Assembly: GCA_965178125.1 (NCBI GenBank)
Contig: OZ237760.1
Span: 868,001-928,314, forward strand
Reading direction: 5' to 3'
Source: Bilabrum cf. latius
Lineage: Eukaryota
Length of the DNA stretch: 60,314 bases
Below are positions 12,101-45,229 of the stretch, one piece after another; position 1 is the stretch's first letter; each line of letters begins with the position of its first letter. The notes beneath the pieces are model-generated. The model saw only the letters and a list, made by a program, of their open reading frames with translations. It had not been told where the DNA came from and did not search any database. Made by a program: the position numbers and the translations under genes.

Positions 12101-13566
12101 CTCGCCCCCGCCACCCAGGCTGTCAGGGCTGTCTGCCCCTCCCGCAAGCCCGCCCTGCCCCTGCTCGGCGCGTCCCATTGCAACCAGAGCATCGGAGGCG
12201 CGCTGTCGCTGCTCGGCGGCCTCATCGTGCCTCTCTTCCTCTTCGTCCTCGGCGGTGGCAGCAGACGCGTACGCTTGGGCCGTGGTTGCATCTGCCAGAG
12301 ATTCGATGCTGGCGATAAGGCGGAGACGATGGCGCACCCATGCATTGACGTCGTACACCGAGGCGGATGATCCTGCGAATTGCTCCAGACGCATCGCCAC
12401 CACCGTCGTGTGCCTGACGTACGCAACCATGCCGCCCGCTGCCCCGGCCAGCATGCCGCCCAGTATGACCAGGGCTGAATAATCCGAGTCGCCGCCCTGC
12501 ACTTGTGCAATGGCAAGGCATACACCAAACCAGAGGTACGCTGCAGCCAGACCCGCCAGGAAGCCGTTCATCGCGGGCTTTGGATGAACCAGCATGGTGG
12601 TTTGCAGGTAGTACCACAGCAGGCCGGAGGCAATCAGTACCATGGACATGTAGACGGTGCCGTCGAGCTACTTTGCGAACAGGTTGCTCAGAAGAGACAA
12701 GATCAGCATGATCAGCAGGATGACTAGGTCTAGCCTGCCGGTGGCTTTGGCGGCCCACGAGTCCGACGTGGGCTCCTTGTTGTGAAACACGCTTGCGACG
12801 AGAAGTGACATGGCTGCGGTAGCGAGAGAAAAAATGATGGCGGAGTGTGGATGACATACCTTGGGCCGATCATTGAGTGACCTTATTTTTTGGAACGCCA
12901 GAGTTGCTGACCGGGTTGCCCCTGCAGCCAAATCCAGTCATGCTCACCAGCAAGTATCACGAGAAGAAGTACAGCAAGCACGGCAACAATGATCCTTGAG
13001 GCTGAGGAGCAGCTTACGCCTTGATGCAGCCAGTCATCGTTGCTGCACGAGAGACCCCTGAAAAGGAGACCGGCCAAGGGCTGGAATAGCACGCCGGCGG
13101 TAAGACTCCCGGCCCATCGAAAGGTACGAAGTAGAAGTCCGTTCTACGGCCAGTCGAATAGAAAACTAATACCTACAAGGCATGCAATGCAACAGACAGC
13201 CAGAGTCCAGAGCGCTGCCAATGCAAAAAGCCAGACGAAAGCAGCCGTCTCGGCAGTTGCACTAGCTAAGGCTAGGTACTGAATTCCTTCGCCAATTGCT
13301 AGAGTCCATGGTGAGTTTTTCCATGGCAACTAATCCGTTGGCTTGAGTACAATGGATGACAGCTAAGCCCAGGCTATCAGCTGACCAGCAATAAAAGACA
13401 CTTTAAGGTCATGCTGCGTCCGGGTGAGCAGACTCATGGTGCCAAAAACAGACCTGTTTATCTGCAGACCAACCCGATCGAGCCATGTTGTTGCCTTTGA
13501 TTCGTCGAAGAAACCCTGGCCTCGAGCCAGTTGTGATGCGGATACACCAGCGCCATTCCCGTCCAT
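6143..13566 (-). CDS. Giant (~2,430 aa) multi-pass membrane PAS-domain sensor (TmcB/TmcC-like)
   Basis: Adjacent minus-strand track ORFs join in one frame through 12 TAG codons (13363, 13330, 13144, 12668, 10883, 10583, 10199, 8867, 8780, 8513, 7955, 7364) plus intron 12947-12814. Order: N-terminal TM helices, TPR-like helical region, PAS (IVAVSPAACRFLGFTQSALLGRDINQILPEPIRSGHNLFMNRF), C-terminal TM helices. Stop TGA 6143-6145. Confidence 0.85.
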
Positions 13567-14113
13567 TTCCCTCTTTGCCAGATCAAAAGAGGCTAACTTC
13601 TGCTTGAAACGTACTGATTGCTTCGGAGGTATGTTTCAAGGAGGTGTGTGATCGTTGTGCGTGGATGATGCCCAGCTGATGTGGATTGCTCCGATCGACG
13701 ATCGCAACCAGACCAGTTGGTCGCAATCATGATATGCCATTTACGGCCCGGTCACGGAACGCTATGCATAATGAGCTGTGGCTGTGTATCTAGTTTCGTA
13801 ATTTGGTGCGGGAATTGTCGGTAGCTCGGGGTGTCGTAGGGTGTCACCATTCGCAATCAGCCGACCAGTGGGCGACCACCCGCGTGCCTGGCATCCATTT
13901 GGGGCGCCTCAATCCCCAGAGAGTTGCAAGACGCTATCATTTGGCATACATACGCGGCAAGGTACTAATATCCTTCTTGCCTTGGCCACATGGTGGCTTC
14001 GCTTGCTAAACAAGATCTGTTTCAAAATAACACTTTACATTAATGACGAACATTCATGAACAGAGTAGAAACTTCGCAAATGTGAAGGACAGAAACCAGC
14101 AGTTGTTGCCATC

Positions 14114-16469: not shown

Positions 16470-19400
16470 TTAGCCCGGGGTAGACATTCCGCCACCCCGC
16501 ACCACTTGCCTACTACCGGACCCATTGCCACCACCACTGCCGAGAATCCCGGCACTCGCGTGCCTGTTTCCACCCCCGATGGACACCCGCAGCGTCCCAG
16601 CCACCAGCTGCCTGGCTCGCACCAGCCGCCTCGCATCCTCGGGGGTCAGCGGGCTGTCCACAGAAGGCTACCTGCCGGTCGTGCGAGTCCCACGCGGCAA
16701 AGCACCCGTCTCCTAATGGGTGGCTGGGCTCAGTGAAAACAGCCCGCTGCCAGACTCGCCCCCAGCACTGCTGTTGCCTAAGCTTGATTCTGATCGGCTG
16801 GTGCCCCTCTCAGCAGCGGGCCGCTCTTCTCTTGCCGTGGACGCAACCCCATCGAGCACTCTACTCCCCCCTGCGAAGAAATCCACTTCCCCCGTCCCTT
16901 CCTCTGTGATAGTCCCCGAGTCCTCGTCGGAGCCGCCCTCGCTGGACTCGGACGCAGCTGTCGATGGTGCCGCACTACCTGCAGCTCGGTCCTTCCTGCT
17001 GCCCGCTCGCTTCTTGGGGCGTCTCTTCTTTAGTCGCCTCCTCCGCTTCACAATCTTCTTACTTCTCCTCGGCCTAGCCGCGCCGGAGGCCCCCTCCTTG
17101 GTGCCAAGCACGGTCCGAAGTGCGCTCGCCACTGCCACTGCTCTGGAGGCAGCAGACTCCTGCCTCCTACTACTGGCCGACCTCGATCTCGACCTCGATT
17201 GCCGCACCCGCTCCCGTGCAATGCCACGGGCAGCTCGAGCCACCACGCGCTTCCTGGAGGCGCCTGTCCGCCCTAGAGGCACCGCAGGAGGCGCAGCTCC
17301 GCCCAGCAGGGTGGAGATGACCCGGGCCCCCGATGAAGCCGTGTCCTTGAGCAGTCGCTTGGGCACGCGGGAAGGTGCAGGCCTAGACCGGCGACTGGCT
17401 CTAGAGGATGCCCGCGAGCGGACCGAGGAAGCTCTAGAAGAGGCCCTCGAGGAGGCCCTGGATCTCCTACTACTGGAGCGGGACACTCGTCTTACGCGGG
17501 GCCGGATCCTGGCTCGCCTGCCCTTCCTCAGCTTCTTCGGCTTCCCGGCTGCCCCGCTGCCCACCTTCTACCTACCGGCTGCATCCGGTTCGTGCCCTCG
17601 CGTAGGCAGGTCAAGCTCTCGCCTATCCAGCCCGTTCTGCGCGAAGGGAGACATCTCCGACAGCACGCGGTCCCCTGGTGTGGCACTGAATGCTAATCCC
17701 TGTCCCTTCCCATGGCTTGATGCTGACTCCTGCACAAGTCCACGGCCCTCGTGCCTGACCTCTTGCTCGGCGGCTCGGCGATCAACGCTCCACCTCGGCT
17801 TCCCACGCGGGCTGCCTCTGGCCCTGGGGCTGCTCGCTTTCCTGGGGCTATTCGAGGCCCGACCGCGCCTCCCTCGTGGGCTCCCTGGCTGCCCCTTCGA
17901 AGGTCGACTGCCCGCCAGCAGCGAATCCTTTAGCGCCATGCTGCGCTCCTAGGGGGAGGCTGCCCGCAGCAGGTCGGACCGACTGGGCGGCAGCGGAGGC
18001 TCTGTCGTGTACCCACCACCAACTCGGCGGGCAGGTGAGCGGGGTGCGATTCCACCGGCTCCGGGCGAAGATTTCACGCGCGGCTCTCTATGCTCCGCAC
18101 TGCCGGAATGCATACCAGCCCAGTCGCCGACCTGTGCCCCGGATCTCTCGCTGCGTCGCTCCACAGAGGCGAGGATGGACCGGACCCTGGACACAGCCGC
18201 AGGGGAGGCAGGGGGGCGGTGCCTCCTTCTCATGCCTGCAGAGATCGATCTGTCAAGAAGCGCATCACGGTCGCTGCTGGCCTCTCGGCTGCTGCTGCGG
18301 GCGTGGTTCCCGGCTGGCCTGGAGCCTCTGCCGCTGGGTCTCGGATCGACGGATCTGGACCTGGACCTGGACCTGCCCGGCGTCCGACTTGGCTTGCTCC
18401 TGGCACGACCCCCGCGCGCGGCAACGTCATCACTGTCGTGTATGCGGGAGTTCCCATGGGCATCGACGTGGTCTTGCTGGGCTGCCTTGTTCGACCGCCG
18501 GAGCCGCTTGATCTCGCGCACCATGGCTGCCCCGGCTGCCGCCACACCCGGCAGCAGCCTCCGCAGGCCCCGCAGGCGCACCCATCTCGGGTCCAACACG
18601 GTCCCTGGCTGGTCAGCGCCAGCACCAGCGCCTGCTGCTTGTTGGGGGTCCCCATGACCCCTCGGGCTCGCTTGGTTCGTGACATTCGCACTCAGTCCAC
18701 TCGCAGCGAGGCCCTCCTCGGCTCCCGACTCGCTCGCAGGCAGCTGGGGCGGCGGGATGTCGCCGTGTGAAGCACCCGACATCACAGCAGCGGCAGCGTT
18801 CACCCTCCGGAGCACCCGCATGGCCTCCTCCAAGGAGCCGAGCCGAGACCGCAGCTGGGCCGCCTCCTCAGACTCACGCCGCCTTTCCTCCTCTTCCCGC
18901 GCTTTCACCTGGGCCCGGAGCATGCCTTCGCTCTCTTGCAGCTGCTGCAGCCGAGGGGGCAGCTTGCCCTCGCCAACCTGCTGCAGGTCCAAGCCCCAGG
19001 CCCTCTCCGCAGTGACCACTTTCTCCTTGAGTTCCTTGAGCTCGCGGGTGGCATCCTTCCAACGGCGCTCGTCGTGCCGCGCCCGCTGCGACTGCTCTCC
19101 GGCCCGCTGCTCGGCCGCCTCTAGCCTCTCCTTCCTCTCCCTGTGCTGCTCGTGTAGCTCAGTGATGGTCCGCAGCAGCTCCTGCTGCACCCCCTGCTGC
19201 GTGACCAGCTCTGCCTACAACCGGACTGCCTCTGCCTTGGCCTCCTCAAGCCTCTCTGCCTTGCCCCTCCACTCGTCCCTCTCCGCGGCGGCCTGCTCGG
19301 CGCTTCGCATCGATGCCTCCACCTCTCGCCGGGCCTCCACGGCCGCCTACTCGGCCCGTTGCTGGGCCTCCCGCGCGCTCTCCACCTTCTTGCGGGCCTC

Positions 19401-20249
19401 GGCCTGCCCGTGCAGCCTGGCCCGCAGCCCCCCCAGCGCAGCCCTCCTGTCTTCCACGTCGCTGAGCAGGGCATCCCGCTCCTTGGCGCAGCGGTGCTCG
19501 GCCTCCCGCGCCTTGGCCGCCATCTGCCGGGCTGTGCGCGCGTCCGCCCGAGCCGCCTCGAGGGCCGCTGCTCCTCTGGCGTGCTGCTTCTCCTCCTCCC
19601 GCAGACCCCTCACCTGCGCCTCAAGGGCCTGTGCGCGATCCTGTGCCGCGGCATGCGCCCGCTTGGACTGCTCCAGCCGCTGCCGCAGCGAGGCTCGCTC
19701 AGCATCCCTGCGCCCGGCCTCCTCCCTGAGCCGAGCCAGTGCCGACCGAGCTTCTGCGGCCTCTCGCGACGCCTCTGCCAGACGAGACGCAGCGTCAGGT
19801 GCTGCTACGGGTTCACTTCCGTGGTGAAATGGCTCCTGGTGCGCAGTTGCCGATGTGCCAGACGTGCTCGGCTGGTGCGTGCTCAGTGCCTCCATTGCAG
19901 GACGACTCACTGCCAGAAAAGATGCGAGTTCTGCCCGAGTTCTGCGCAGCTCTGCCGCCAATTCTCCTGCGCCATGTCCAGAAACAACGTCTGCCTGCTT
20001 CCAACGCCCACCAGCGGCTGCGGGATGGCTAGAAGCTCCTATCGCTGTGGCAGCAGTTGGAGGCAGCCTGCGCCCCTCTTTCAAAGCTCCAGCAAGTGAG
20101 TCTACGCGTTCCAGTACTCTTGAAAGTGTCCGAATCAAAGCAGATCCGTGACTCTACGTCCTAGGATCGGCAGCGAAGCGTGAAGGTGCATCGCTACCGC
20201 GTTTCGACTGGGGCCTTCCTCGCGGCAGGGAAGGAGGTCGTCGTCGCAT
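16470..20249 (-). CDS. Large coiled-coil / Arg-Ser-rich protein of unknown function (~1,260 aa)
   Basis: Five track ORFs join in frame through seven TAG codons (20154, 19347, 19215, 17949, 17568, 16713, 16668). E/R/A/Q-rich heptad region, then a basic low-complexity tail. ATG 20249, stop TAA 16470-16472. Confidence 0.75.
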
Positions 20250-20567
20250 AAATCGCGCCGATCCTCGTACAAAGAACTTGTTTAAATCGAAGTACGAACT
20301 GCCTAAATGATTGATCCGCTCGTTGCTTCAATAGTAGGCCATTTTAATTTCGAGGCAAACGGTAGGAAGGCGGTTGCAACCGTTGCACGATGTGGGGGGA
20401 CGGGGCGCCCCACCTAAATGGACGGAACCGACACTAATGCCCCTTGCGGGGACGGTATAAACTCGAAAATCAAGATTCGTTCGTTCGTTCGGTATAATTC
20501 AATATACAGGGGCAGACAGCAGCTGATTGAGCTAAAACAGAAGATGATACCACCAGGAACTCATTTG

Positions 20568-21735
20568 TTATCTCCCCTCAAGATCTGCCGTGCCGTCCTT
20601 GCTACCTGCGTCCGCTCCGGTTGCAGAGGACCGCGACTCGCCGTCTCCTGCTCCACCCGCTGCAGCCCCACCCTCAGCCTTGCCCCCAGTGTCCTTCGAG
20701 GCACCCGCATCAGCAGGTGTCTCCTTAGCGGCAGCCTCCTTGGCCCCGTAGTCTCGTTTCCCGAAGATCAGCGAGCCTACCCTCACCGAGTCCGCCCCCT
20801 CCTCCACGGCCAGCTCAAAGTCGCCACTCATGCCCATAGACAGCTCCAGCGACAGACCGGCCGCTGGGACAGATTTTGCAGATGCCGCACCAGGGTCTGC
20901 ACTCGCGTCTGCACCAGCCCCAGTGCCTCGCCCGGCAGCCTCTGCTTCGCCTCCCGCCTCGCTCCCCTGCAGGCTATCGCGAAGGGCAGCCAGCTTGCGG
21001 AAGAAAGGCACAGGCTCAGCACCAGCCTATCCAATCGTCATCAGACCAGCTAACGTGAGAGTGCCGCACTTGCTCACAATGTGCTCGCACAGCGCAGCAG
21101 CGTCGTCTGGCGTGACGCCGCCTTTCTACGCTTCTGCCGACGTGTTTATTTGCACAAACACTCGCAACCCTTCGTGCCCTTCCTTGATGCATGCAGCATG
21201 CAGCTTGTTGGCAAGCTTCACGCTATCCACGCTTTCTATGGCCCAAAGCCCAGGCACCTCGCGTACTAGTAAAGCGGCTTTGTTGGACTGCAGCTGCCCG
21301 ATGTAATGCCAACGGATATCGGGGCATGCTCCAGATTCTTTCAATTCCTGAGCTTTTCTAACGAGTTCTTGTGCGTAGTTCTCTCCAAAGTGCCTCTGCC
21401 CTGCCTTGTAGCACTCAACTATCATATCCATGGGTTTGGTTTTCGACACAGCAACCAGCCGCGGTGCCTGTGGAGGTCATGGGTGCAAAATCAAGCGTGG
21501 GAGTAATGCAATCATATTGATGCAGAGCATACTCGTCCGGAACGACGAGGCTGCCGTGTATTCGAGATGACGTGGCAGAGCTATGCGGCGTCAATATGCC
21601 AGGCAGTCTCACTGTGCTTCGTCCACATCGTGAGGCTGCACTCTTAATACGAGCAAGTACAGACTCAAGGTTCTTGGCCACCTGCATACGTCGTGTTGTG
21701 TGTAGGAAGTTCTTGACCACCGCGGCGCCGCGCAT
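20568..21735 (-). CDS. PLPBP: Pyridoxal-phosphate homeostasis protein (YggS/PROSC family)
   Basis: [81 protein letters not shown]. Intron 21612-21468; TAG at 21126 and 21027; stop TAA 20568-20570. Start codon uncertain. Confidence 0.93.
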
Positions 21736-21876
21736 AGTAGCGGAACTCAATCCAACCGATCCGGGCGAGAGGCGTTGGACATAGCAGCGGCAAACCAGGA
21801 ATTCCCACAGTGCTTCTGGGCATAGAAATACGTTGGACTGCATACAGTCTGTAAGGTGTCTCGGTGCGGGCTTGGG

Positions 21877-24468
21877 ATGGGATTATTTGACCAGGCTAAC
21901 TCATCGGCCGCGTCCCGACCATCGCGGAGACCATCGCCTGTGCGGGTTCCTTCAGCGTGCGTCATAGCTGGTTTCGTAATATTGTGCGGACTGCAGGCTG
22001 CAAGTGGCTGGTAGCAGTGGACTTGGAACACGGATGGGCCCGGTCCCCGCGACGGGCACTCGCTGCGGCTGCTCGGGAGAAGTGTGTACCTGTTTGGTGG
22101 CCGAAGCGATGATGTACAAGCTTTCCATCGGCCCACAACGTACGAAATAGAGAATGTGAATGGGAGCCTTGGCTTTCGCTCGTATGACCAATAGCCCGTG
22201 CGAGAGTGCGCCGCTGGTTTGACGCAAGACGAGTGCTACAACACCACGATTGGGGTGTACTGGAATGATGTTTGGAGATATGACCTGGACTGCGATAGGT
22301 ATGCAGATCTCGGCTGCTCCAGCTAGGGCTGGACTCTCGTCAAACCTCACGCAAACCTTGGCGGCTGCCGGATTTTCAGGGAGGAGCTGGTGTGCTCGCA
22401 TCCATCCGAGCGGCACGACCACGGAGCTGCCCTGTTCCCGTCGGGGGAGCTGCTCGTGTGGGGGGGGTTCAGCTGGAAGTGCGATGACTATTGCGATGAC
22501 GAGTGGATGCTAGATGTGCAGGCGTGTCGAGCGAACGCGTCCCTGTGCAACTGGCAGGAGGAGGTGGGGTTGGGGGGCAGGCCGGAGCCAGCCGATGCCC
22601 CGGGGCCCACCGAGGGGGGCTTGGCGCCGGGCAAGCGCTGGCGATTTGCAACAGCCGAAGACGGGCAAGGCAAGGTGTATTAGTTCGGCGGTCAGCGACT
22701 GTGGCACGGCTTCGCCACGGCCAACAGCGCCGCCAACCGGTGGGCCAACACAGACTCGATTCCGTTCGGCGGACTGCTGGACGACCTGTGGTCCTACGAC
22801 CGCAGCACGCGGGAGTGGACGCAGGTCCTGCCGAAGGAGAGCTGCTACGAGGCACCGGGCCGGGACTGGGAGCACCGCAACGACCGGCGCTGCACGATCA
22901 CGTGGCCCTCTCCCCGAGCCAGCGCTGCCCTCGCCTTCCAGGACGGCAAGCTGTACCTGCACGGGGGGTTCAATGCGCCGCTGCCGTACCCGCACGTGGA
23001 CGGGAGGGGCGCCAGCACGGGCACGGGCAGGGCAGCGTCGGACGGACCTGCTCCCCACCCGTCGCACCCGTACTACCTGCAAGACCTTTGGGAGCTGGAC
23101 CTGCAGACAGGGCTGTGGAAGCTGGTCGAGCCTGAGCTAGGAGAGGCCTACCCTGCCCCGCGGCGGGACCACATGATGCTGGCCACTTCACACGCGCTGC
23201 TGCTGTTCGGTGGATACGGAGACAACTTCCATTTCGGGGACACGTGGCTGTTCAACGCGAGCACACGGCGGTGGCTGCAGAAGGAGACCTTCGTGCACGC
23301 CCTCTTCCCCTCCAACTGCACCTCGGACGTGCTCAAACTGCCCAGCGGGGAGGACTTCGTGCTGCAGCAGTCCGTGAGGGGCGAGCCCACTCGTCACACG
23401 CTGCTGGACGGCAAGAACGGGAGGGCCTCGGAGGCAGTGCAGGTGCTGCAGCCGAGGAGGCAGGCACCGGGCTGGGACGGCTGCAGGGACCGCTTGGACG
23501 GGAGGGAGGACCTGCCTGCCCAGCTGCAGTGGTTGCAGCCGTCCCAGAGATACGGATACGCGGCGGTGTTTGCGCCCGACCTGCCGGTGGCCTCTCGAGA
23601 CAACCCATTTGGGTTGGACGGGATCGCGCTGCTGTACGGGGGCGTGTCTCTGCTGCGGGAGGACCTGGCGGGCGTGGCTGTGACTCGCCCGTCCGCGGTG
23701 GTCGGCGATTTCTGGCAGCTGGACGTGACATCGTGCCCGAACAACTGCAGCGGGTCCGGCGACTGCTGGTACGGGTTTTGCTACTGTCACGATGGCTACT
23801 ACGGTCTGGACTGCAGCAACGCGAGCTGTCCGGGGGACTACTGCTACTACGACCCGCACACGCACGAGCAGATCTGCTCGCACTGCTGCCACGCGGTGCA
23901 CGAGCACAGCGAAGAGGCGCCAGGGGACTACGTGCTCAGGGAGCGCAAGGTGGCATGTGACGCGAGGCACCCGGGGGAGTCGCACGGCATCTGCGACGGG
24001 TTCGGGCAGTGCCAGTGCGCGCCCCCGTACGTGGGTCACGACTGCAGCATCAGGGACTGCCCGGAGGGGTGCTCGGGGCGCGGGGCATGCAGCCTCGAGT
24101 TTCCGGTGGCCAGGTGCATGTGCGACCCGGGGTGGGCGGGGGACAGCTGCCAGGAGCAGCTGTGCCTGAACAACTGCAGCTGGCCCAACGGGTACTGTGA
24201 CAGCGGCACCTGCGTGTGCACCATGAACCCGAACCCGTTCAACAGGAGCATCGACTTTGAGCCGTTCGCGGGGGAGGACTGCTCCTTCCTGGTGCCTTTC
24301 GCTGGCGCGGCTCGAGGGGCGGTGGCGCCGAATGCTGGTCGGGCGGCGTTTGCTGTCCTAGCTGCGGCAGCGCTGGCGGTGCTTGTTGCAGTGGGGAGCC
24401 GGGGTGACGGGGGCGAGGCCTCGAATTGCTTGTCGCGCGCATCGCGGCGCGGTCGCCTCGTTAGTTGA
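21877..24468 (+). CDS. Surface protein: kelch/galactose-oxidase-like propeller + EGF (tenascin-like) repeats + C-terminal TM
   Basis: One frame from ATG 21877 through TAG 22012, 22192, 22324, 22681 to TGA 24466-24468. Hydrophobic leader, kelch motifs (VYLFGG, LYLHGG, LLLFGG), EGF units (CPNNCSGSGDC...C.CHDGYYGLDCS), C-terminal hydrophobic helix. Confidence 0.88.
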
Positions 24469-24710
24469 AAACAATAATTGTAATTGCCTCAAGATGGACT
24501 TGTCCTTAGGCCTGCCAGTCAGATGAAGAAATGAACAAAATCTTGTGCAAATCGTCACTCTGCAGAGCACCAGCAACGCCGCAATCTATTAGACTGTCAT
24601 TGAACTCTTCCCGCCCTGGACGATACGGAACATATTTCAGTGCTTGTATATCGTTTGATTTTTCCTCAGTTTTTCTGCTTGAGTGCGCCCAAGTCTTCTG
24701 AGAGTAGTTC

Positions 24711-26594
24711 ATGGCAAAGGTGGACACACACAGAGCCGATTTGGCCGAGTGTTGGCTAGCTTCCATGGTCACCGGCAGCGATCATGCCTCCGGTCGCCAT
24801 TTGGTGTTGCGTCCAACTTCAAAGGGCGATTCGCTCTGGGGCGACCGCCTGGCATCTCCAGGATCTTCGAGACAGTCTGTTGGTCTGGGCTTGGTGCGGG
24901 CTGTCTCGACCCCCCCAGTTCTCGACAAGGTTGTTGGTGCACCACTGTACGAAATCCAAGTAGTTGGTGGGCATCCAGGTGTGCTATCTGATGGGAATTC
25001 TGTCTTGAAGCCCCTGCAAATCGGGATCAGAGCGAGGCGCGAGGTGTGCTTCTACCGGTGGTCTGCTCTTGAGCAAGCAAACGGCAGAGACACTGCTGGC
25101 GTTATCCCACCATGCAAAGGTGTTGTTCGTGCAGTTCCTGCACCGCATCGCGTAACAGGTGCAGCTTGTAGGGCACGAAGCCAGGGCAGAGCTGCTGGCA
25201 TGGCAGCCAGCCAGGCGCAACGCCAGGGGATTGGATCCGCCAAGTCTAGCTCATCGAAGGAAACAGCGGTGCAGCTTTGGTATCGTTTAGGGCCACCGCT
25301 ACCAATCGCTCCGGATGCCTCTGCTCGATCAATGAAGGCGCCTTCGACCGCCATTTCCAGATTGCCAGCAGCTCCCACGTCACTCCCGGCGTGGCTCGAG
25401 AAAGAGCTGCCGATGCCTCCCGGAGAAGCCACCGGGGCAGCGACTCGCAGCCTTGCCCCATCTCCCGGCCGGACAGTCCGCGTGGGGTTCGGTACCCAGG
25501 CAGCTGCCTCATCAGCAGCAGCGGGACCTGGCTCGGGCGCTTGCGGGGGAGCTGCAGCAGATGCCGCGGCAGGACGGAAACCGGGTGCGGAAACAAAACC
25601 AACTGCAGGATCAAAGGAATAGCTTGAGACAGTAACTATAGCAGGATCAGACGTCGAGCTGGAGGCTCCTACGGCTGGTTCTGGGCCGGTGCGCGCCGCT
25701 CCCCCCGGCTCTGCGTTGCCCCTCTGCATCGAGATGGAAGACGTGACGAGTGGCATGCACCGCCCGTGCCTGGCCGACCTCAAGGTGGGTCTGCTAACTA
25801 GCGGTCCCGACGCCTCTCTGGCCAAGCAGAAGCGCAGTCTGGCGAGGTATCCCCCCTAGGTGCGGTCGGGGTACAGGGTCACTGGGCTGCGCGTGTGGAG
25901 GGGGGCCAGGGCGGGGGCGGGATCAGGGACAGGGGGTGGAGATGGAGGGGGCTGGGACAGCTTTGGCAGGGACTTTGGCAAGCGATTAGACGCGAGTGAG
26001 CTCGCGGTCGGACTCGGCAGGTTATTCGTAGCTGGGGATGGCACTGGATCGGGTCTGCGCATCCAGCATGCGGCCGCTGGGCAGCTGCTCTCCGAGGTGC
26101 GTCGGCTGGTCCTGTGGAGTGCGCGGCAGACGACGTGGCGGTTGTTTGGAACGAGCGTCCTCCTGGCCTTTGAGGGCCAGCCGCAAGCCCGCGCTCTCGA
26201 GAGGGGTGAGGCTGCGGAGGAGGCGGGGGAGGAGCAGGAGGCAGGTGGCCCTGGCGCTCTGAGTTGCAAAGCTCGCCTGATTGATTTCGCGAACGCGTGG
26301 CCTGCCTCTGCCTGCCGGTCGCTAGACCCTGATCAGTTGGCCGGGGCTCGCGTGTGCAAAGAGCAGGTGCGGTGGCTGGTGGAGCAGCCGGGGGTGTTGG
26401 AAAGTGCGGGTCAGATTGACGTGGCTGCCCTGGAGGCAGACAAAAACGGCTGCGTGCCTGGAAGCTACTTGGCCGGTCTGACCGATGCAGGAGTCGTGGT
26501 GGGTCTTCTGAACATATGTTGTGCTCTGGATGCCATCTCCACCAAGGGGGTGGATGCGGCGATTCTAGAGAGAGCCAGGGGCGAGGTGCGGTGA
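24711..26594 (+). CDS. Inositol polyphosphate kinase (IPK/IPMK family)
   Basis: QVVGGH, REVCFY, MEDVTSGMHRPCLADLKVG (PxxxDxKxG), RYPP*VRSGYRVTGL, GTSVLL, ARLIDFA. TAG at 25620 and 25857 read through; stop TGA 26592-26594. Confidence 0.88.
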
Positions 26595-26682
26595 GCGAGC
26601 TGGGGCTTCCATCGAGTGCCAGTGGCTAATGTATTATTTTCTTACCATTCATTCACTTGGAGAGAGCCTAACCAAATTGAGA

Positions 26683-28362
26683 TCAGCCCTGCATGACCCT
26701 GCAGCCGCTTCCATCCACGGTGATGCTCAGCTCTGGATCGCCGCTGCCGCCGCTATCATGCGGCCCTGGCCCCCCTCCCACCGCAACGGAGGGCTGTGCG
26801 TGCTTTCGCTTGCCCCTGGTCTTCGGCAGAGCGGCCTCAAATACTACGGTCCGCTTGTGCTTCCTGCCCCTCGAGTCCATGACCATGGCCGTGGCAGCGT
26901 ATTCTCCTGGAGCCAGCCCCCCGATGCGCATGTCCACCGCGCATGCCTCGGAGGGAGGCAGCTCGTCCAGCTCAGCCTGTGCACTGCCAAGGGACTGCTT
27001 CAGGGTAATCGCCCGGCCCACTGCATCGCCGCTGTCCCCGCTGCTGCAAACATCCGCACCGCTGCAAGTGGACTCACCGCCAGCTTCGATCCCTCCCGCT
27101 GCTGCCTCATCCATGTCCAGGATCGCCTCTGCTCCTGGTAGTAGGGACAGCCAGCTCACTTCCTAAGCAGCATCTTCCCCGGCACTGTCGTCCATGTCGG
27201 CGTCCAAGACTCCCTGCCCATCCCTCTGCCACTCCTCCCGGGCTTGTTGCACCTCTGCTATCAGCTCACGCTCCACCTGAGTCCGCTTGCCCGCTGCCAT
27301 CGCCGCTGCAAATGTGTCACTACCCTCTAAGCACTGCATGGCATACGATCCTTTCGGCAACTCGTTCTTCCCGCGCTTGCCAGCCCCTTGCTGCTTCTGC
27401 TGGTGTCCCCGGTTGGTCAACGCCCGGGCCTCCCCCGGAGACACGCTCGCGACCGTCAGACACAGCCGGGAGTGCTTCGGGTGCAGCCGAGGCAGTCCCT
27501 GCATGTCGATATGCGCATCGAATACCATGGTGGGAGGCGCGTTCGCCCCTTCCTCCACGAAGGGTCCCCGCACCCAGAGCTGCAGTCCGGCGGCAGCGAG
27601 AGGGTCGGTGCCGGGCGATGCTGGAAATTCATGCGCAGTTGCCAGCAGCTGATCATCCAGAGTCGTACCTTCGGCCGAGATGGTGGCTCCGGTCCTGCCT
27701 GATCGCACAATGGTCGCTCGCTTGCTCTGCCCAAGGGCTGTCGGCGGTGGGACGTCCAACTCATCATGCATCCAAGCAAATTGCTGCTCTAGCCCGACAA
27801 ATCCACCCAATGCAAGCAGTCCAAGAGCAAAGAATACAGCATGCAAACTTGTTGATGGCCGGTACTGCTTTGGGTTTTCGACCATTTCGAGTTGGCTAGA
27901 GCTAGTCTGTAGCGGCTTTGGTGACAGGACCAGTTCAGCACTGGTTTGCGGTCTGCAGCGTCGCCTGGCGATGGGTGATATAATTATATCCATAGATTGG
28001 GCAGGTTCAAGGGTAGACTGCTCCACAGTATCGTCTGCAGCACCAATCATTGTGGCAGACTCGTTGCCGTGAGCAGATGCTGCGTCGCAGCTTGCCAGCG
28101 TTGCTGGACCAAAAATTGCTCTAGCAGTAGACCCTCCGTCGATGTAGCCAGAAACAGACACATCACTTAAAATCCCTCCTTCCGTTTCAGTGCTGTCGCC
28201 TTCGATGGGAGTGTCAGGCGAGATTGCTGCAGCTGGCCGAAAGACCAGAGATCTGTGCACATCTTTCTGAGGGGTCTTAATCGATGCTCCTTCGCTCTTC
28301 AGAGGCTTATTATTAAGACTAACGCCGTGTAGCGTGTTCTAGTCAACCTATGTCAGCGGCAT
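26683..28362 (-). CDS. Hypothetical single-pass membrane protein (~560 aa)
   Basis: ATG 28362 (MPLT*VD*NTL...), three TAG codons, one hydrophobic helix (LHAVFFALGLLALGGFVGL), stop TGA 26683-26685. No family recognised. Confidence 0.6.
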
Positions 28363-28508
28363 ACTGGCAGTAGGGGTTCGTCTGTCCACTCGCGCCGAAA
28401 TCCCGGCTTGACGAACGTTCGTTTTTGACAAGCGAACTTCGTGTCGGCGAACGCAACGTTTGAACGGCCGTACTCAACACAAGTCGCCCGTCATCACAGC
28501 GCCTCATA

Positions 28509-33968: not shown

Positions 33969-34109
33969 CTTGGCAGTATATCAATGTGTGTTGTATCGAA
34001 CGGTCTATTGCGGCCGACTCGTTCGGAACGTCTAGTGTTGCGCTTCCGGTTTTCGGTGCCACACCTCGGTGAAAAACAAGCAAGTGCCGCGGGCACCTCA
34101 ATTGCTACG

Positions 34110-36698
34110 ATGCGCTCTCAGTTCGCGAACTTGGCATCTCGATTCCATCGCTTTGCTCTGTTTTCTCGGCGTCAATTCTCGTCACGCGCTGCTCCTTCAC
34201 AAACGCCGAGAAAGGTACGCACAAGGTTTGCCCCCTCGCCAACAGGCTCGCTACATATTGGCGGTCTTCGAACGGCGCTCTTTAACTTCATGTTGGCAAA
34301 ACAGAGCGGTGGTGAGTTTCTGTTGCGGGTCGAAGATACAGATAGGACACGATTTGTGCCAGGGGCGACGGAAGGAATCTTACTTGAATTGCAACTGTGT
34401 GGAATCAAACCGGACCATGGCCCAAGCAAGAACGATGTGCAGCACAGTATAGAAATGCACGGCGGTTCGTAGCAAGCACGGGCGCATGCAACTGATGAAT
34501 CTGGTGGCCCATTCCTCCAGTCCCTGCGGCTCAGGCTGTACCATGCGATTGCAGCCAGGCTACTGGCATCCGGGGCAGCATACAGGTGCTTTTGCTCATC
34601 AGATAGATTGAATACTCTCCGAGAAGACCAGGCTCGCCGGGGTGTCCCAGTCATGTACGACGGTCGTTGCTCCGCGGTACCTGCTCAGGAGGCCGAGTAG
34701 CGGGCTGCGAGCGGTGAGCCGCACGTGATTCGCCTGAGGGTGCCGCGATTGGGCTCCATGGGTACCGGTCAGGGTAGCAATGACGCATCCCCTGCATCTC
34801 TAGCCGGTCTCAACCAGCCCTTTGCCCCGCGAGTGGGACACTCCGGGCTGAGCGTGGACGTGAGCGAGGGCCAGGCAGCACTCCGGGCCAGCGACACGGT
34901 GCTGGGGACGACCCGCTTCCCGCTGGTGGCAGTGGACGACGGGGTGCTGCTCAAGAGCGACGGATGGCCCACGTACCACCTCGCTTCCGTTGCGGATGAC
35001 GCGTGCATGGGCATCTCGCACGTGATCCGGGGGCAGGAATGGCTGGCCTCCTTGCCCAAGCACGGGCTGCTGTACAGGGCCCTTGGCTGGGACCGCAAGG
35101 GCACAGGGGGCGAGGGGAGCCAGGAGAACAGTAGCAGTGGCCAGTGGTTAGAGGGCGGTCCCGCTGGCCCGGGGGATGGGTTCGACAAGGCGGCTGCAGG
35201 CACCATCGGGCTGGCTCCCATGCCGGGTGCGGCCTCCATGCCCTGGATGTTCCCCCAAGGTGGGGACGAGGATCCCCTGGGGGACTGGCTGGACCTGCAA
35301 CCATGGGCCGGGTGGAATGAAGCCGATGATGCGTTCGACCTGCCGAGCTTCACGCACCTTCCTCTGCTGCTGGGCGAGGACCGGAGCAAGCTGAGCAAGC
35401 GGCACGGTGCTGCCAGCGTGCAGGAGTACAGAGAGAGGGGCGTGCTGCCCGAGGCGCTGCTGAACCACGTGGCGCTGTTGGGCTGGCACCCCGGTGGGGG
35501 GGACACCCGTGAGGTGTTTTCCCTGCCCCAGCTGTGCGCCGAGTTCAGACTGGACGAGGTGAGCAAGTCGGATGCGGTGGTGCTGGAGCACAAACGGAGG
35601 TGGATCGAGGGTAAGCACTTGAGGGCGGCTGTGCTGCACGGAGGTGTGCATTGCCAGCCGCATGAGGCCTCAGATGCAGATGCAGGGGCTGACACGGATG
35701 GCAAGGCCCCTGCGAGAGAGCCCGCCAGTCCCGAGAGGGTGCGCGCCATGGAGGAGGCCCTGGGGGGCCACTGGCCGGGGGGAGTCTCAGGGGTGCAGGG
35801 CGGCAAGCAACGGCTGTTGGGGCGCATCACCAGCGAGCTGGCTCGTGTGGTGCATGATCGCGCTACTTCCGTGGAGAGCGCCGTGCTGCAGGAGGAAAGG
35901 GCGGGCTGGCGCATGGACCGGCCCGAGGCAGTGTGGCTGGAGGGCTTCAAGGGAGAAGAGGCAGCCGAGGCCATGGGGCGGCAGCAGGGTATCGTCATGG
36001 ACGCAGCGCTGGCCAGAGCGTGCGTTCTGCTGCGGGCTGGCGGATACTACGAGCCCACGGTCAGTGTGCGCCCGTCACTCGCAATAGAGCCAGGGGACAG
36101 AGAGGAAGAAGTGTGCACCAATCTCGAGATGAAGCACGAGTGGAGAGGGGGTGTACCCGAGGAGAAGGTGTTGATAGACTAGCAGAAGCTGCTGCAGCTG
36201 CTGGAGATGGTCTTCGAGCGAGCCGAGGTGGCCGCAGACCTCCCGGGGGTGATGCTGCCGGTATTGCTGCCTCCCGACTGGGCGGGCAAGGAGTCACAGG
36301 CCTCCATGCCGACGGCTTGCGGGGACTCGCAGGATGGCAGAAGGATCAGCGCCGAGCTGCTGGACGCACTGGTGGATGAGCTTAGAGCTGCAGCATCGAC
36401 CATGCGAGACGAGTGCGAGGGATCACCTGAGGGGAAGGGCTGGGGCGCGACTGCGATGAAGGCCGCCAGGCGAGCAGCCAAGCGGATGGACAAGGCGAGG
36501 CGGGCCGGTGGGGAGGAGGAGCGGCGGTTCGAGGGATGGCCTGAGCGGGTCAAGCTTCCCATGGTTCTTTTGCCATTGAGGTGGTGCCTCACTGGCAGCG
36601 ATAGCGGGGCGCCCATCGGCAACCTGCTGGATGCCATGGGCCCGGTGGTCACACTGGCGAGGCTGCAAGCCGGAATCAAAGTGCTTCAGTCAGGTTGA
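34110..36698 (+). CDS. EARS2: Glutamate--tRNA ligase, bacterial type, probably mitochondrial (EARS2-like)
   Basis: Transit-like leader [94 protein letters not shown]; anticodon-binding domain [11 protein letters not shown] at 34470, 34698, 36180; stop TGA 36696-36698. Confidence 0.93.
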
Positions 36699-37403: not shown

Positions 37404-38915
37404 ATGGAGGCAGCTGCGTCTGTGGATTTGGTTGGTTCACTAGACTGTGACAATCAGGTATAGAATGGGCTCGAACGGTGCGTAGATGCCGCTGTGTAGC
37501 ATTGCATGTCAAGACGATTTGCCTCCGCCGCTTCTCCTGAGATCCGAGCAATCTCGCATTTTTTGGCGCTAGCGTTACCGCTGTTGGCCTTTCGCCGCTC
37601 AGTTGGGGAGGCATGCTTTGGAATTGTTCGGGCAGCCCGAGTGGGGAAAGCTCACAAGCAGTCTGTGCAGGCAAGGGACCTTCGCAAACTTGGCAATGCA
37701 GAAGCTATTGGCTTGGCTGCGCTATTATCCATTGTACCATACGTCGGCCAGCGCTTCATAACTAAGACGCCATCGTTCGAGACGAGCGCCGCGGCCAGTA
37801 GCGGGGGTCCGACTCCAGATATTGGTGCTTTGCAAAGCGCTGCACGGCACGATGTTCAATAGTGGATGGCAATTGGTTAGGACGGTGAGAATGGTGCTGA
37901 GGCTGATGTAGTTCGGATTGGAACCCCGGATGCGAGCACAACGGGGCCACCCCGCACAGTAGCACAGGCGCTTGCCCGGCTGCTCGTGGCTGTGCGACGG
38001 GCAGGGAGCTAGCTGGCATCGATGGTGCTCCGGCTGGGTATATCAATCGCACGGCCTTTTGTCGTCGGCGTGTATGCAGCTGTCATCAGGCCTGTTTTGC
38101 GGGCCGTGAGCGCCATCCGCTCTCTAGCAGTGGCTCGGATGGGGTACCTGCTGCCCCTTGCCGTGGCATCGGCGGCCAGGGCGGGGGCGGGCACGTTCGC
38201 CAGGGCGCACCGCATCTCTCTCCTGGTCCGTGGGGAGCATTCCACTTGGGCGGATCGACTGGTGCAGGTGCTATCGGTGAGGAGGGCACCGCCACCATCG
38301 ACGATCCACGCGCCAGGGACGGACGCAAGCAGCGGGAGCGGAGCAGGAGCTGCCGTGGCTCCGCAGGCGGCGCTACGCGGCGTGGCGTTGCTGGAGTCTG
38401 CCTCGTCTGCGATCGATGTCGTGGGATCCGCTGCACGGGCGGTTGCGCGGGGGGCGGCCCGTGTGCAGGAGCGGGAGAGCAGGCGGGAAGCGGCAGTGAG
38501 AGGGCAGCGGGCCGGGGGGCTTGAGGGGGGTGCTGGCGGTGCGGGGATGGGAATTCAAGGAGTCGAGTCGAGTGCCTCAATGCAGCGGGCCGCACTACAT
38601 AGTGCGCCGTGCGTGCTTCCAGACGTGCCCAGTTGCAGCCCGCTACGCCAAGCCTCGGCTGGGTCCGCTAGGTCATCTTGTAGTGACTTGGGCGGGGCCA
38701 AGTGCCCCGTGTGCTTCGAGTCGATCTGCGCGGGAAGGAGCAGGGGCGGGCGTGGGAGTATTGAGAACGACGAAGAGGAGCAGCCTGCGTGCGCCTACCC
38801 GTGCGGGCACGTCCTGTGCTGGGAGTGCGGCGTGCAGTGGGTGTCGCAGAAGGGCAGCTGCCCGATGTGCAGGCAGACGGCCACAACGCAAGAGCTGCTC
38901 GCCCTGTAGCAGTGA
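37404..38915 (+). CDS. PEX10: Peroxin PEX10-like RING E3 ligase
   Basis: Pex2/Pex12-type N-terminal region (EIRAISHFLALALPLLAFRRSVGEACFGIV; HRISLLVRGEHSTWADRL) and C3HC4 RING (CPVC...PCGHVLCWEC...W..QKGSCPMCRQ). Six TAG codons (37461, 37497, 37860, 37878, 38010, 38907); stop TGA 38913-38915. Confidence 0.75.
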
Positions 38916-40807: not shown

Positions 40808-42034
40808 ATGCTTAGCCTCGCAGCGGCTATATTTTTTGCGTCGAGCTTGCTGGCTCGTGGAAGCAGCCTTCCGTTGAAGCTCGTCCTTCTCGACGAGGCC
40901 GCGAAATCAGCAGGGGCCAAGTGCCTGGATGGCAGCCCTGGCGGCTACTACTGGCGCCAGGCTACTTCGCAAGCAAATGCTACCAAGTACTTGCTAGTGT
41001 TCAACGGTGGAGGTTGGTGCCGGTCCCTTGAAGATTGCGCCGCCAGATCACACACGAAACTGGGATCCTCAACAAAGTGGTCCTCCTCGATCAATGGCGA
41101 AGGCATCACGTCGACGGATCCAGGGCTCAACCCAGGGTTCAATGGGTGGAATGTGGCCTACCTGTACTATTGCGATGGAACCAGCTACTCCTCCAACAAC
41201 GATACGACGTCGTAGTACGGTTCCCAGCAGCTGTTTTTCAGGGGCCGACGCATCCTTGACGGGTTTCTCGAGGACCTCAAGGCGAATCGCGGCCTCGATA
41301 AAGCCACAGAAGTCCTTCTGTCGGGCCATAGCGCCGGCGGGCTGGGTGCCTATCTGCAGGGCGACCACGTGGGTGACTTTGTGAAGGCGAACGCGGCAGC
41401 CGGAGTAAAGTACGGCGTCGCTCCAGACGCGGGCTGGTTCATGCCGCTGCCACAGGCCACAACTGGTAACAATTACTACCACGACTACATAGTGGAGGTG
41501 CTCGGTGTGCTCGGAAACTCGTCTGGCTGGGTGAACGAGGGCTGTGTGGCAGCCCAGGCTGGGCCCGGGGGGGACCCGCACCAGTGCCTGTTCGCGGAGA
41601 ACGTCTTCCAGTACACCAAGTACGACTACATGCCCGTGCAGTCCTCGTACGATTCCTGGCAGTTGCCAAACATCATCGATCTCAAGTGCCTGCCCCCCAA
41701 GTGCAACGCCACGGAGCTGGGCATCGCGCAGGGCTTCCACTAGGCCCTCGTCGCGAGCATGGCCAAGGCGGGCGCGCTGCCTCCTGGGGTGACCAGACCG
41801 CCGGGGGCCTCCAGGCGGGGCAGCTCTGCCTGGGTCATTTCCTGCGTGTCCCACTCGGAGATGTACTACGGGGACTACTTTTAGAACTCGCGCTGGGAGG
41901 CCAACTCCACGTCGGGCAGGCACTCGCTCAGTGACACCGTGGCGGGCTGGTGGCATGGGGCTTCCAACACGGGCGAGCGGTACGGGTGGGACGAGTGTGA
42001 GTGGCCCTGCAACACCGCATGCTAGGACATCTGA
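40808..42034 (+). CDS. Secreted pectin-acetylesterase/Notum-family esterase
   Basis: Signal peptide, AKCLDGSPGGYY, FNGGGWC, WNVAYLYYCDG, LFFRGRRI, VLLSGHSAGGLG (GxSxG), YDSWQ, SCVSH, terminal ECEWPCNTAC. TAG at 41213, 41741, 41882, 42023; stop TGA 42032-42034. Confidence 0.92.
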
Positions 42035-42231
42035 GCGGGAGCTGCATCTGAGCGGGAGCTGCATCTGAGCGGGAGCTGCATCTGAGCGGGAGCTGCATCT
42101 GAGCGGGAGCTGCATCTGAGCTGGAGCTGCATCTGAGCGGGAGCTGCATCTGAGCGGGAGCTGCATCTGAGCGGGAGCTGCATCTGAGCGGGAGCTGCAT
42201 CTGAGCGGGAGCTGCATCTGAGCGGGAGCTG
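42028..42231. repeat. 17-bp minisatellite x12
   Basis: Unit CATCTGAGCGGGAGCTG, one variant copy near 42121; lies between two convergent genes. Confidence 0.95.
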
Positions 42232-42436
42232 CCTTCTCTCTCAGGAGGCGCTTTTCACTTCTTCGAGACTCGTATGCCAGTCACACACAAATTGCGAGAT
42301 AAGACCGAAGAGCCTGCCAGAGGATGGCAACAAGAATTTCTTTGCAAAAAGATTGCCAGAAGATGGCTGGGTGGCAACAAGGATTTCTTTTGTGTCTGGA
42401 ACGACCGCAAGCATGCACGACCAATCGACCTCATCT

Positions 42437-44204
42437 TCAGCTTCCCCCAAACAGCGCATTTGCCACCCCGTCGCTCCTTCCGCCCCCCGCTGCCGCCCCC
42501 CGCGGACCTCCGCGCGCTCCCCGCCCCCCTGCTCTCGGCTGTTCTCGGCTATCCTGCTCCCAAGGGGCCGATGGGCCCCTCCCGCCGCTGCCATCACCGC
42601 CCCTCCGCTGGCCTCCCGCAGGATCGGCCGCCCGCCCCGCGGAGGAGCCACCTCCCCCCACCACCTCAGCGTGCGCCCGCTGCGCCTCCCCCGAGTCCAG
42701 CACACCGTCCCTGTCCGCGTCATAGCTCATCAGCTTGCTCTCGGCGGCATCCATCTCACCTTGGCTCAGCCGGCCGTCCCCGTCCCTGTCGAATTTGCGG
42801 AGCAGCTCCAGCTCTTCAGGCCCCCGCAGAGTACCCCTCGGCAGGAACTCCCTGAGCTTGGCCGCGTGTTCCTGCAGCAGCTGCTGCCTCGCGGCCTCCA
42901 CCACCCGCTTCCGGAACGCATCCCTCGCCTCTGCCTCCGCCTGCGCCCTGGCCTCCATCTCGCGCTGTTCCTCAAAGAGCCGCTTCTTGTGGTCCTGCAG
43001 GGACTCGATCTCCTTCTTGTACTCCACCATGGCCCGCGCCCGGGCCACCTGCGCCTCCTTGTCCTGCCTCTCGTCCTCCTCCATGCGGGCCTTGAACGCG
43101 GCGATGTCCCGGGCCTCCCTCTCCGCCTCCTCCTGCCTGACCTTCTCCTGCACCTCCCTCTGCCTATCGATGCCCTCCATCAGGGCCTTGCGCGCCTCCA
43201 CGCGCTTGCGCTTGTCCGCCTCCAGCGCGTCCATCCGCTTGCGCTCCTCCTCCTCCTCCACCAGCAGCCACCGGAGGTGCTCCTCCTCCTCCTTCTCCCG
43301 CCGCTTGCGCTCCTCCTCCTCCACGATGCTCTGGTAGGCAGAGTCCCGAGCTGCTTGTTCCCTGGCCTTCTGCTCCTTGGCCGCCTCCTCGCGAGCCGCC
43401 TGCTCCCTCGCGAACCGCGCCGCCTCGGCCTCCATGCGCCGCTCCTCCTCCCGCTTGGCAAGCAACTCCCGCTCGCGCTCGGCCTGGAACTTGCGCAGCT
43501 CTCGAGTTGCTCTCTCCCTAGCTTCACGCTGCTCCCTCTACCTGCGGGAGTCCTCCTCCTGCACCTTGGCCACCACCTGCTCCACCTGCTCCCGGTCCCT
43601 CTTGGCCTGCTCCTCGCTCGCGATGAAGATGAAGGCCTCCATCTCGCGACGGAGCCGCTGCTCCTTCACAAGCTCTGCGTCTGCCCTGCGGTCCGCTTCC
43701 AGCTGTGCCTGCTTCTGCGCCTCTGCATGCTCCGCCCTGATCCTCGCCTCCTCCATGGCAGCCTCCAGCCGCTCCTGGCGCTCCCTCTCGGAGCGAGCCA
43801 GGGCCTCGCGCTCCTCTCGCTGGCGCTTCCTCTCCGCGTTTACAGCTGCCAACTTCAGCTTGCTTTGCAGGTCTCTCAACTCGGGGTCGTCCATACAGAT
43901 TCGCTGGACCTCCCTGCGGCGCTGCTCGTCCTCCCTCTTACGTCGCTCGATTTCCAGGGCAAGAGCTGCATCCTGCTCGGCCTATCGAGCCTGCTTTCTC
44001 TGATGGTCCCGAGCTGCTGCAGTCTACTGTGCAAGTACCATCTCAGAGGCTCTCTATGCATGCATGTTTGCTCGGCGCCTCGCTTCGACGGCTGTGTCTC
44101 TGCGAATTGAACGAATGTCGGTAGCAACTCCTATCGATTGGAGGCATGCACTACGCCAGAAACGGGCTGTGCGTTGATTAAGATTACTTGCTTGCGTGCA
44201 CCAT
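42437..44204 (-). CDS. MNS1: MNS1 (TPH-domain axonemal coiled-coil protein) with C-terminal EF-hand pair
   Basis: DDPELRDLQSKLKLAAVNAERKRQ and VVEAARQQLLQEHAAKLREFLPRGTL match the MNS1 N- and C-terminal signatures as recalled. Intron 44187-44100; TAG at 44054, 44024, 43982, 43538; EF loops DRDGDGRLSQGE and DADRDGVLDSGE; stop TGA 42437-42439. Confidence 0.85.
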
Positions 44205-45226: not shown

Positions 45227-45229
45227 TTT

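Follow-up and report, generated by a model that had tools for sequence, protein, structure and literature searches.

Reassignment of the stop codon UAG alone, with UAA kept as a terminator, was first documented in 2017 and is described for a handful of lineages in the available portions of two reports (PMC5304391, PMC11687900). In Iotanema spirale (Fornicata), UAG specifies glutamine and both UAA and UGA serve as stops (Panek et al. 2017, PMC5304391). The phyllopharyngean ciliates Hartmannula sinica and Trochilia petrani putatively read UAG as glutamine as well (McGowan et al. 2024, PMC11687900), and leucine has been assigned to UAG in the rhizarian exLh and in an uncultivated phyllopharyngean lineage (PMC5304391, PMC11687900). 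Here, we examine the in-frame TAG codons of a 60.3-kb stretch of contig OZ237760.1 (positions 868,001 to 928,314, hereafter the window), which has about 62% G+C. The host is a microbial eukaryote with a G+C-rich, intron-poor genome. Its nuclear code very probably uses UAG as a sense codon for glutamine, with UGA (mainly) and UAA as terminators.

The window shares with Iotanema the reassignment of UAG alone, to glutamine, and the retention of UAA as a terminator, so that UAG and UAA carry separate meanings. The setting differs: in the accessible part of its description, Iotanema is an anaerobic metamonad with UAA as primary stop, whereas the DNA analyzed here has 62% G+C and UGA as main stop (13 TGA versus 3-4 TAA). 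With Hartmannula and Trochilia, the window has in common that UAG alone passed to glutamine and is widely used as a sense codon. UAA is the fixed, preferred stop in those ciliates, as far as the accessible account goes, in contrast to the long multi-gene DNA, (TTAGGG)n arrays, and mainly TGA stops found here. The leucine codes, as described in the same portions, also reassign UAG alone, but leucine is the partner residue at none of 19 orthologue sites in this study. Among named proteins, those of oomycetes match best for glutamyl-tRNA synthetase (GluRS) and a kelch-EGF protein, and those of choanoflagellates for a pectinacetylesterase (PAE); the lineage is presumably stramenopile-like. Because it differs from that of Iotanema, the origin of the code is presumably independent. 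The change is of a rare but already known kind; searches of the literature library covered listed no report of such an organism.

NCBI translation table 15, in which TAG encodes glutamine, is the same codon table as that deduced here, although it describes a code and not a lineage. Code 6-type systems, found in ciliates, hexamitin diplomonads, and some green algae, read both UAA and UAG as glutamine, presumably through suppressor tRNA-Gln. They resemble the present case in the conversion of a stop to glutamine and differ from it in that TAA is not a sense codon here, with no in-frame occurrence in 14,447 codons.

In-frame TAG codons and termination

The 14,447 codons belong to 18 open reading frame (ORF) segments, comprising 16 full-length genes, an upstream ORF of a TmcB-like gene, and exon 2 of a PLPBP gene. 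Their coding frame contains 65 TAG and neither TAA nor TGA, zero counts that are partly circular because TAA and TGA served as ORF boundaries. The two off-frames contain 87 and 134 TAG, 26 and 32 TAA, and 206 and 238 TGA. Once TAG is read, the longest stop-to-stop frame grows from 754 amino acids under the standard code to 2264, and further long frames of 1834, 1636, and 1285 amino acids appear. Reading TAA as sense in this one window merges no ORFs, and the long frames gain only a few codons.

Given this circularity, the independent support for a sense TAG comes from homology that runs across the codons. Pfam matches to PAE, tRNA-synt_1c, IPK, kelch/EGF, TPH, and Pex/RING families span TAGs, and the orthologue alignments pass them without gaps. 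The PAE match, for instance, covers residues 60-420 of 446 and crosses three TAGs. The C-terminus of a Pex10-like protein is matched by Peroxin-10 (PDB 7t92), and an MNS1-like protein is matched by PDB chains of MNS1/FAP127 (1e-12 to 1e-6). All TAG coordinates quoted in an earlier sequence-only reading of this DNA, for PLPBP, inositol polyphosphate kinase (IPK), membrane protein, kelch, and MNS1 genes, are present and in frame. The TAGs are scattered through ordinary genes without special context. They make up about 0.45% of codons, compared with 3.5% for CAG and 0.9% for CAA, or about 9% of all glutamine-type codons.

Gene ends were assigned for all 16 full-length genes and PLPBP, with TGA in 13 and TAA in 3-4; the TAA-ended group consists of a kelch-BTB gene, the 1259-amino-acid protein gene, PLPBP, and the upstream TmcB ORF. 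No gene examined needs TAG as a terminator. UGA (mainly) and UAA terminate translation by this test, which is partly circular and confined to one window. When the genes were considered for ambiguous stop/sense codons of the Condylostoma/karyorelict type, dedicated TGA or TAA codons were found to end every gene, and two TAGs were found in 3'-proximal positions, where termination may occur.

Contigs of four other sequencing runs were placed on window positions 16470-36469. Those of X5, X6, and X8, which come from other studies, show no differences from the window. The X5 and X8 contigs are gene-sized (for example, 16877-20319, 20479-21466, 21878-24490, and 24618-25901), and their depth varies about 35-fold between neighboring genes (7.6, 126, 272, and 9.8). 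In both runs, a joint within the PLPBP gene also leaves out 145 bases. The skipped segment reads GTGAGA...CACAG on the coding strand, is a GT..AG intron placed after codon 25, and its removal joins the 25-codon exon 1 in frame to a conserved stretch of 12 residues at the start of exon 2. Given the splicing and the uneven depth, we infer that X5 and X8 are transcript assemblies, although no run is recorded as RNA. At least 16 TAG sites are unchanged in the X5 and X8 contigs, including all four of the kelch gene; the X5 contig at 16877-20319 is identical to the window across five of the seven TAGs of the 1259-amino-acid protein gene. Because spliced, transcript-like contigs keep the TAGs unchanged, editing, introns, and assembly error are excluded as their source. 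In X11, a relative with about 7-11% base differences from the window in its listed pieces, no TAG occurs among the 40 differences listed out of 1224.

The PLPBP intron is the sole intron seen in the window, and the other genes look intronless except for a probable one in the TmcB-like gene. In the same 16470-36469 comparison, sequence 100% identical to the window was found in runs (X5, X6, X8) filed under four organism codes in four studies. The organism may commonly accompany or contaminate other cultures; alternatively, several labels may be in use for it.

Relatives of the window's proteins were recovered as fragments for three genes: PAE (P0001, 97% identical, and P0002, 69%), TmcB (P0016, 86%, P0017, 93%, and also P0018), and kelch-EGF (P0072, 92%, P0083, 97%, P0099, 80%, and P0050, 77%). 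When P0018 was used as query in a metagenome scan, two contigs were recovered, L001 (2.0 kb) and L002 (10.5 kb), both carrying a TmcB orthologue with about 56-75% protein identity. The same scan with the window protein as query gave no match, and neither did scans of genome-contig and viral-contig collections with alignment A2. Since L001 and L002 hold in-frame TAGs of their own (4 in 500 codons and 15 in 1784, respectively), the code is common to a clade, and these comparisons indicate at least four related lineages that share UAG as a sense codon.

Of the relatives' protein fragments, six break off within the gene, four of them opposite a glutamine codon of the window: P0017 before Q1791 (CAG), P0083 before Q264 (CAA), P0099 before Q105 (CAA), and, if aligned gap-free, P0016 before Q1316 (CAA). 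The other two, P0001 and P0002, end exactly at window TAG 41882. These ends are presumably TAG codons of the relatives. Standard gene callers truncate the proteins of this organism wherever a TAG occurs. The same truncation is visible in database entries for proteins of its relatives, and the clade therefore needs table 15 for annotation and metagenome binning.

Residue identity at UAG

The residue assignment was addressed through orthologues. Every TAG in any species was tabulated against the aligned residue in the others (for TmcB, the window, L001, and L002), which gave 49 ordered rows. Rows were kept if they had no gap within five columns and identity at 4 or more of 10 flanking residues. 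TAG/TAG pairs were dropped, as were weak-flank rows, 13330-13332 among them, and five close-relative comparisons were added. The usable set consists of 19 sites, 10 of them TAGs of the window and nine TAGs of relatives, with one partner per site. Glutamine is the partner at 11 sites, followed by serine and alanine (two each) and histidine, glycine, threonine, and asparagine (one each). Leucine, glutamate, tyrosine, tryptophan, and lysine are the partner at none; the sequence-only reading had named columns dominated by leucine, glutamate, tyrosine, or tryptophan as the outcome that would speak against glutamine. Conditional scores under BLOSUM62 are +23.6 bits for glutamine, +5.3 for glutamate, +3.1 for serine, +2.8 for arginine, and +0.7 for lysine.

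Partner glutamines in the window, L001, and L002 are encoded by CAG in 12 of 13 ordered comparisons and by CAA in one, and this predominance of CAG is what a single C/T transition is expected to produce. In the three-species alignments, the 27 TAG partners comprise 13 glutamines, six TAGs, and eight other residues. Glutamine or TAG is thus the partner in 70% of cases for TAG columns versus 62% for glutamine columns, where the partners are glutamine in 55% and TAG in 6.8%; any other residue has a glutamine partner in at most 7.1%. In an empirical model derived from these alignments, glutamine scores -51.9 and lysine, the next best, -89.1, a gap of 37 bits. The ordered pairs in this model are non-independent, so its significance is overstated, but its direction is unambiguous.

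At individual sites of the TmcB-like gene, partners are two glutamines at 12668-12670, glutamine in both relatives at 13144-13146 (CAG and CAA), threonine at 10883-10885, glutamine at 10199-10201, and alanine at 8780-8782. Alanine also stands opposite 13330-13332 in both relatives, with weak flanks. The kelch-EGF TAGs at 22012 and 22324 pair with glutamine in P0099 and P0072, respectively. For PAE, alignment A1 gives serine and methionine at one TAG, then serine and threonine at another.

Several observations weigh against this assignment. Neither the two partners at a site nor the three related species count as independent observations, and all orthologue evidence stems from three genes (TmcB, kelch-EGF, and PAE). 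The fragment ends of the relatives are known from proteins alone. The closest relative has serine at PAE 41213 and 41741 and probably at 8867-8869. Across other homologues, the two PAE columns hold V, D, Q, P, T, S, M and T, A, R, S, Q, H, L, and because they vary in this way, replacement between serine and glutamine through one transversion (TCG/TAG) is plausible. Among more distant homologues, 12 columns summed give glutamine +2.6 bits, threonine 0.0, and arginine -7.3, a lead of a mere 2.6 bits. The kelch column at 22681, from a library-wide HMMER search that yielded 150 homologues, is hydrophobic (L 49, I 21, V 20, M 17, and Q 1 among 120). This site had been singled out from the sequence as the one discordant position, and its hydrophobic character is borne out, with L, I, V, or M in 107 of 120 homologues. 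It does not stand by itself, since PAE 41882 falls in an asparagine column (N, N, N, N, and D in more distant homologues). Columns 42023 and 21027 also disfavor glutamine.

Serine at two and probably three window TAGs is above expectation for a relative whose proteins are 93-97% identical. Here, TCG and TAG may be interchanged by one transversion unusually often; the element paralogues show TAG/TCG and TAG/AAG pairs, as the sequence-only reading had reported, together with one TAG/TAG pair.

The remaining distant columns are mixed. In the kelch protein, glutamine is the commonest residue at 22012 (12 of 39), lysine prevails at 22192 (36 of 84), and 22324 is mixed polar. GluRS column 34698 has A 29, E 25, R 23, K 16, and Q 5 (n = 120), and the other two GluRS TAGs, 34470-34472 and 36180-36182, sit in unalignable insertions. 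Residues opposite the MNS1-like TAGs vary (R, Q, R; Y, K, M; E; S). Overall, the PDB alignments of PLPBP, GluRS, IPK, MNS1, and Pex10 were too distant to be decisive, with variable residues opposite the TAGs. Of the family motifs that had been offered for glutamine, the one at PLPBP 21126 holds in part, as two of three distinct solved homologues have glutamine and the third has serine. At IPK 25857, the proposed consensus finds no support, for the sole solved homologue, human IPMK, has methionine. The family-consensus argument is insufficient alone to settle the residue. The conclusion it was meant to carry, that UAG most likely encodes glutamine, is nevertheless supported, and glutamine is the best reading by a wide margin, with the proof supplied by orthologues in close and moderately distant relatives.

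Proposed decoding and competing explanations

TAG codons would arise from CAG, and revert to it, by single C/T transitions. Decoding would rely on a dedicated tRNA-Gln(CUA), which would differ from tRNA-Gln CUG by one anticodon change, and on an eRF1 that may no longer recognize UAG efficiently. A suppressor tRNA and a weakened eRF1 are likewise the basis given for other UAG reassignments in the available portions of the two reports (PMC5304391, PMC11687900). For one protein to be made, 12 TAGs must be read (nine in the TmcB main ORF and three in the upstream exon), which calls for efficient decoding. The base after TAG is G in 26, C in 19, A in 13, and T in 10 of 68 cases, a count that takes in five TAGs from a mis-framed PLPBP row instead of its real two; the background frequencies are 0.42, 0.25, 0.19, and 0.14. 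As this +4 base matches background, no read-through context is apparent. Programmed stop-codon read-through was considered and ruled out by the same +4 bases, the 65 sites, and the up to 9-12 TAGs per protein. In the window, tRNA and Rfam scans gave no match, and a relaxed ARAGORN run produced only implausible intron-containing calls; no tRNA gene lies on L001 or L002. The window thus does not contain the CUA tRNA named in the sequence-only reading, and eRF1 is not among its genes.

These null results leave a CUA tRNA unproven and give some room to a mechanism that dispenses with it, in which a normal tRNA-Gln (CUG or UUG) mispairs at the first codon position and eRF1 competes poorly for UAG. 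Glutamine codons next to TAG had been noticed in the sequence, and the pattern is weakly borne out: glutamine accounts for 11 of 130 flanking residues against a 4.4% background (one-sided p = 0.027). A yeast preprint, in its accessible part, describes glutamine insertion at premature stops that is favored by flanking glutamine codons (the QXQ effect). The weak excess seen here fits either that effect or simply glutamine-rich sequence. At least 54 of the 65 TAGs, however, have no flanking glutamine codon, the +4 base is unbiased, and 12 TAGs read at 50% per site would leave about 0.02% full-length product. Cognate suppressor tRNAs have moreover been reported for other UAG reassignments, within the accessible text (PMC11687900). 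A suppressor-free mechanism, the chief rival to a dedicated tRNA, is unlikely. Slightly less likely again is a UAG with several meanings, mostly glutamine and elsewhere serine or leucine (through a second CUA tRNA), or termination near the 3' end. It would accommodate the serines of the closest relative at 2-3 window sites, the hydrophobic column at 22681 and the asparagine column at 41882, the TAG kept in three species at 13363-13365 and in three lineages at 41882, and the two genes in which TAG lies 1-2 sense codons ahead of TGA, where about 0.2 would be expected. Conversely, the partner spectrum of TAG is that of glutamine codons, the serine, alanine, and threonine partners occupy positions that vary in other homologues too, and the PAE C-terminus with TAG read has the same length as its Choanoeca homologue. 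All 16 full-length genes and PLPBP also end in TGA or TAA.

That UAG stands for a single residue other than glutamine (leucine, serine, glutamate, tyrosine, lysine, or tryptophan) is highly improbable. Kelch 22681, the two serines of P0001, and the lysines at kelch 22192 point in that direction; the orthologue sites do not, with serine at two of 19 and the other five candidates at none, and glutamate, serine, and lysine trail glutamine under BLOSUM62, as lysine also does by 37 bits in the empirical model. Serine was entertained as the meaning of UAG on account of the two PAE serines of the 97%-identical relative and a serine in PLPBP, and it was rejected on its two sites and +3.1 bits. A leucine code was set aside as well, since leucine is absent from the orthologue sites and the hydrophobic column is confined to 22681. 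Least credible of all, and barely conceivable, is that the TAGs go untranslated because they lie in pseudogenes, assembly errors, unrecognized introns, or edited transcripts. Nothing was found in favor of this explanation. Contigs of three runs from other studies, spliced ones included, are identical over the TAGs; 65 in-frame TAGs stand against no TAA and no TGA; in relatives at 56-97% identity, the same genes have their own in-frame TAGs; and the alignments cross TAGs without gaps.

With glutamine as the preferred reading of UAG, a few TAGs deserve mention for their position or conservation. TAG 13363-13365 is kept as TAG in the window, L001, and L002. TAG 7955-7957 is kept in the window and L002, yet P0017 has glutamine there. 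At 41882, where the window has TAG, the proteins of both close relatives end exactly, and distant homologues have asparagine. Such conserved TAGs are too few to tell chance from constraint. In the Pex10-like gene (38907-38909, the last TAG, one sense codon ahead of the TGA stop) and in PAE (42023-42025), TAG is followed by just 1-2 sense codons before TGA; with 65 TAGs among 14.4k codons, we estimate that about 0.2 would fall so near a stop. Near-stop TAGs may reflect relaxed C-terminal constraint or a residual termination role.

A more far-reaching proposal combines an independent, unreported origin of UAG-only-to-glutamine in a G+C-rich, intron-poor, stramenopile-like environmental protist clade (four or more lineages, with protein identities as low as about 56% and UGA as main stop) with a second, position-dependent role of UAG in regulated decoding or leaky termination, hinted at by the near-stop TAGs and by the clade-kept TAGs at positions that would not be expected to hold glutamine (13363-13365, and 41882 in its asparagine column). 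Taken as a whole, this combination is doubtful. Another case at 62% G+C would in any event be a useful natural test, as TAG should not be a rare codon in such a genome and UGA is its main stop. It bears on whether a stop codon must turn rare before its capture and on how eRF1 loses UAG yet keeps UAA.

Gene content and repeats of the window

The features of the window are collected in Table 1. The TmcB-like gene is split: its upstream ORF ends in TAA, and the main ORF, in another frame, overlaps it (12811-12937 / 12883-13566, minus strand). The upstream ORF is homologous to L001 3-608 and L002 4468-5340, and L002 shows the same layout (4468-5343 and 5162-10513). The shared arrangement suggests a conserved short intron or frameshift between the two ORFs, of which an intron is probable.

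Table 1. Genes with in-frame TAG codons and repeat features of the window (window coordinates)
Feature	Position	Strand	In-frame TAG	Stop	Match or remark
Sulfatase with PAN domain	3255..4844	-	1 (4104-4106)		Pfam Sulfatase 3.3e-19; outside the range covered by the sequence-only reading
TmcB-like/PAS protein, main ORF, 2222 aa	6143..12811	-	9 (12668-12670, 10883-10885, 10583-10585, 10199-10201, 8867-8869, 8780-8782, 8513-8515, 7955-7957, 7364-7366)	TGA	Pfam TPR_TmcB 9.8e-18
TmcB-like membrane/PAS protein, upstream ORF/exon	12883..13566	-	13363-13365, 13330-13332, 13144-13146	TAA	
1259-aa protein	16470..20249	-	7	TAA	no family match
PLPBP/YggS gene	20568..21687	-	21126-21128, 21027-21029	TAA	PDB matches 4e-31 to 8e-17
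PLPBP exon 1	21613-21687	-			
PLPBP intron	21468-21612	-			
PLPBP exon 2	20568-21467	-			
Kelch/teneurin-EGF protein, 863 aa	21877..24468	+	22012-22014, 22192-22194, 22324-22326, 22681-22683 (discordant)	TGA	Pfam kelch and EGF
Inositol polyphosphate kinase, 627 aa	24711..26594	+	25620-25622, 25857-25859	TGA	Pfam IPK 1.8e-20
559-aa protein	26683..28362	-	3	TGA	no family match
Low-complexity protein, 1819 aa	28509..33968	+	7	TGA	
Glutamyl-tRNA synthetase, bacterial/mitochondrial type, 904 aa	33984..36698	+	34470-34472, 34698-34700, 36180-36182	TGA	Pfam tRNA-synt_1c 9.7e-74
Pex10-like RING peroxin, 503 aa	37404..38915	+	6	TGA	Pfam Pex2_Pex12 and RING
Pectinacetylesterase/Notum-family protein, 408 aa	40808..42034	+	41213-41215, 41741-41743, 41882-41884, 42023-42025	TGA	Pfam PAE 1.1e-68
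MNS1/CFAP127-like protein (TPH domain and EF-hand), 542 aa	42437..44065	-	4 (quoted in the sequence-only reading: 44054-44056, 44024-44026, 43982-43984)	TGA	Pfam TPH 3.2e-27
Internal (TTAGGG)n block, 121 copies	45230-45956				
Internal (TTAGGG)n block, 79 copies	47101-47574				
Internal (TTAGGG)n block, 85 copies	51239-51748				
Internal (TTAGGG)n block, 51 copies	59717-60020				
155-bp satellites, alternating with telomere blocks	46017-47051, 47635-49134, 51811-52562				
Two paralogous ORFs	49494-51188 and 52841-54421				370/505 aligned residues identical
1618-aa ORF	55303-60159				runs into telomere block

The right quarter of the window (44900-60314) looks like a telomere-associated array, and none of its ORFs has a Pfam match. 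Two shorter repeats were also observed: a 48-nt repeat in five copies at 1774-2018, and a 17-nt repeat in 12 copies at 42028-42232, which begins at the PAE stop codon (42032-42034) and extends downstream.

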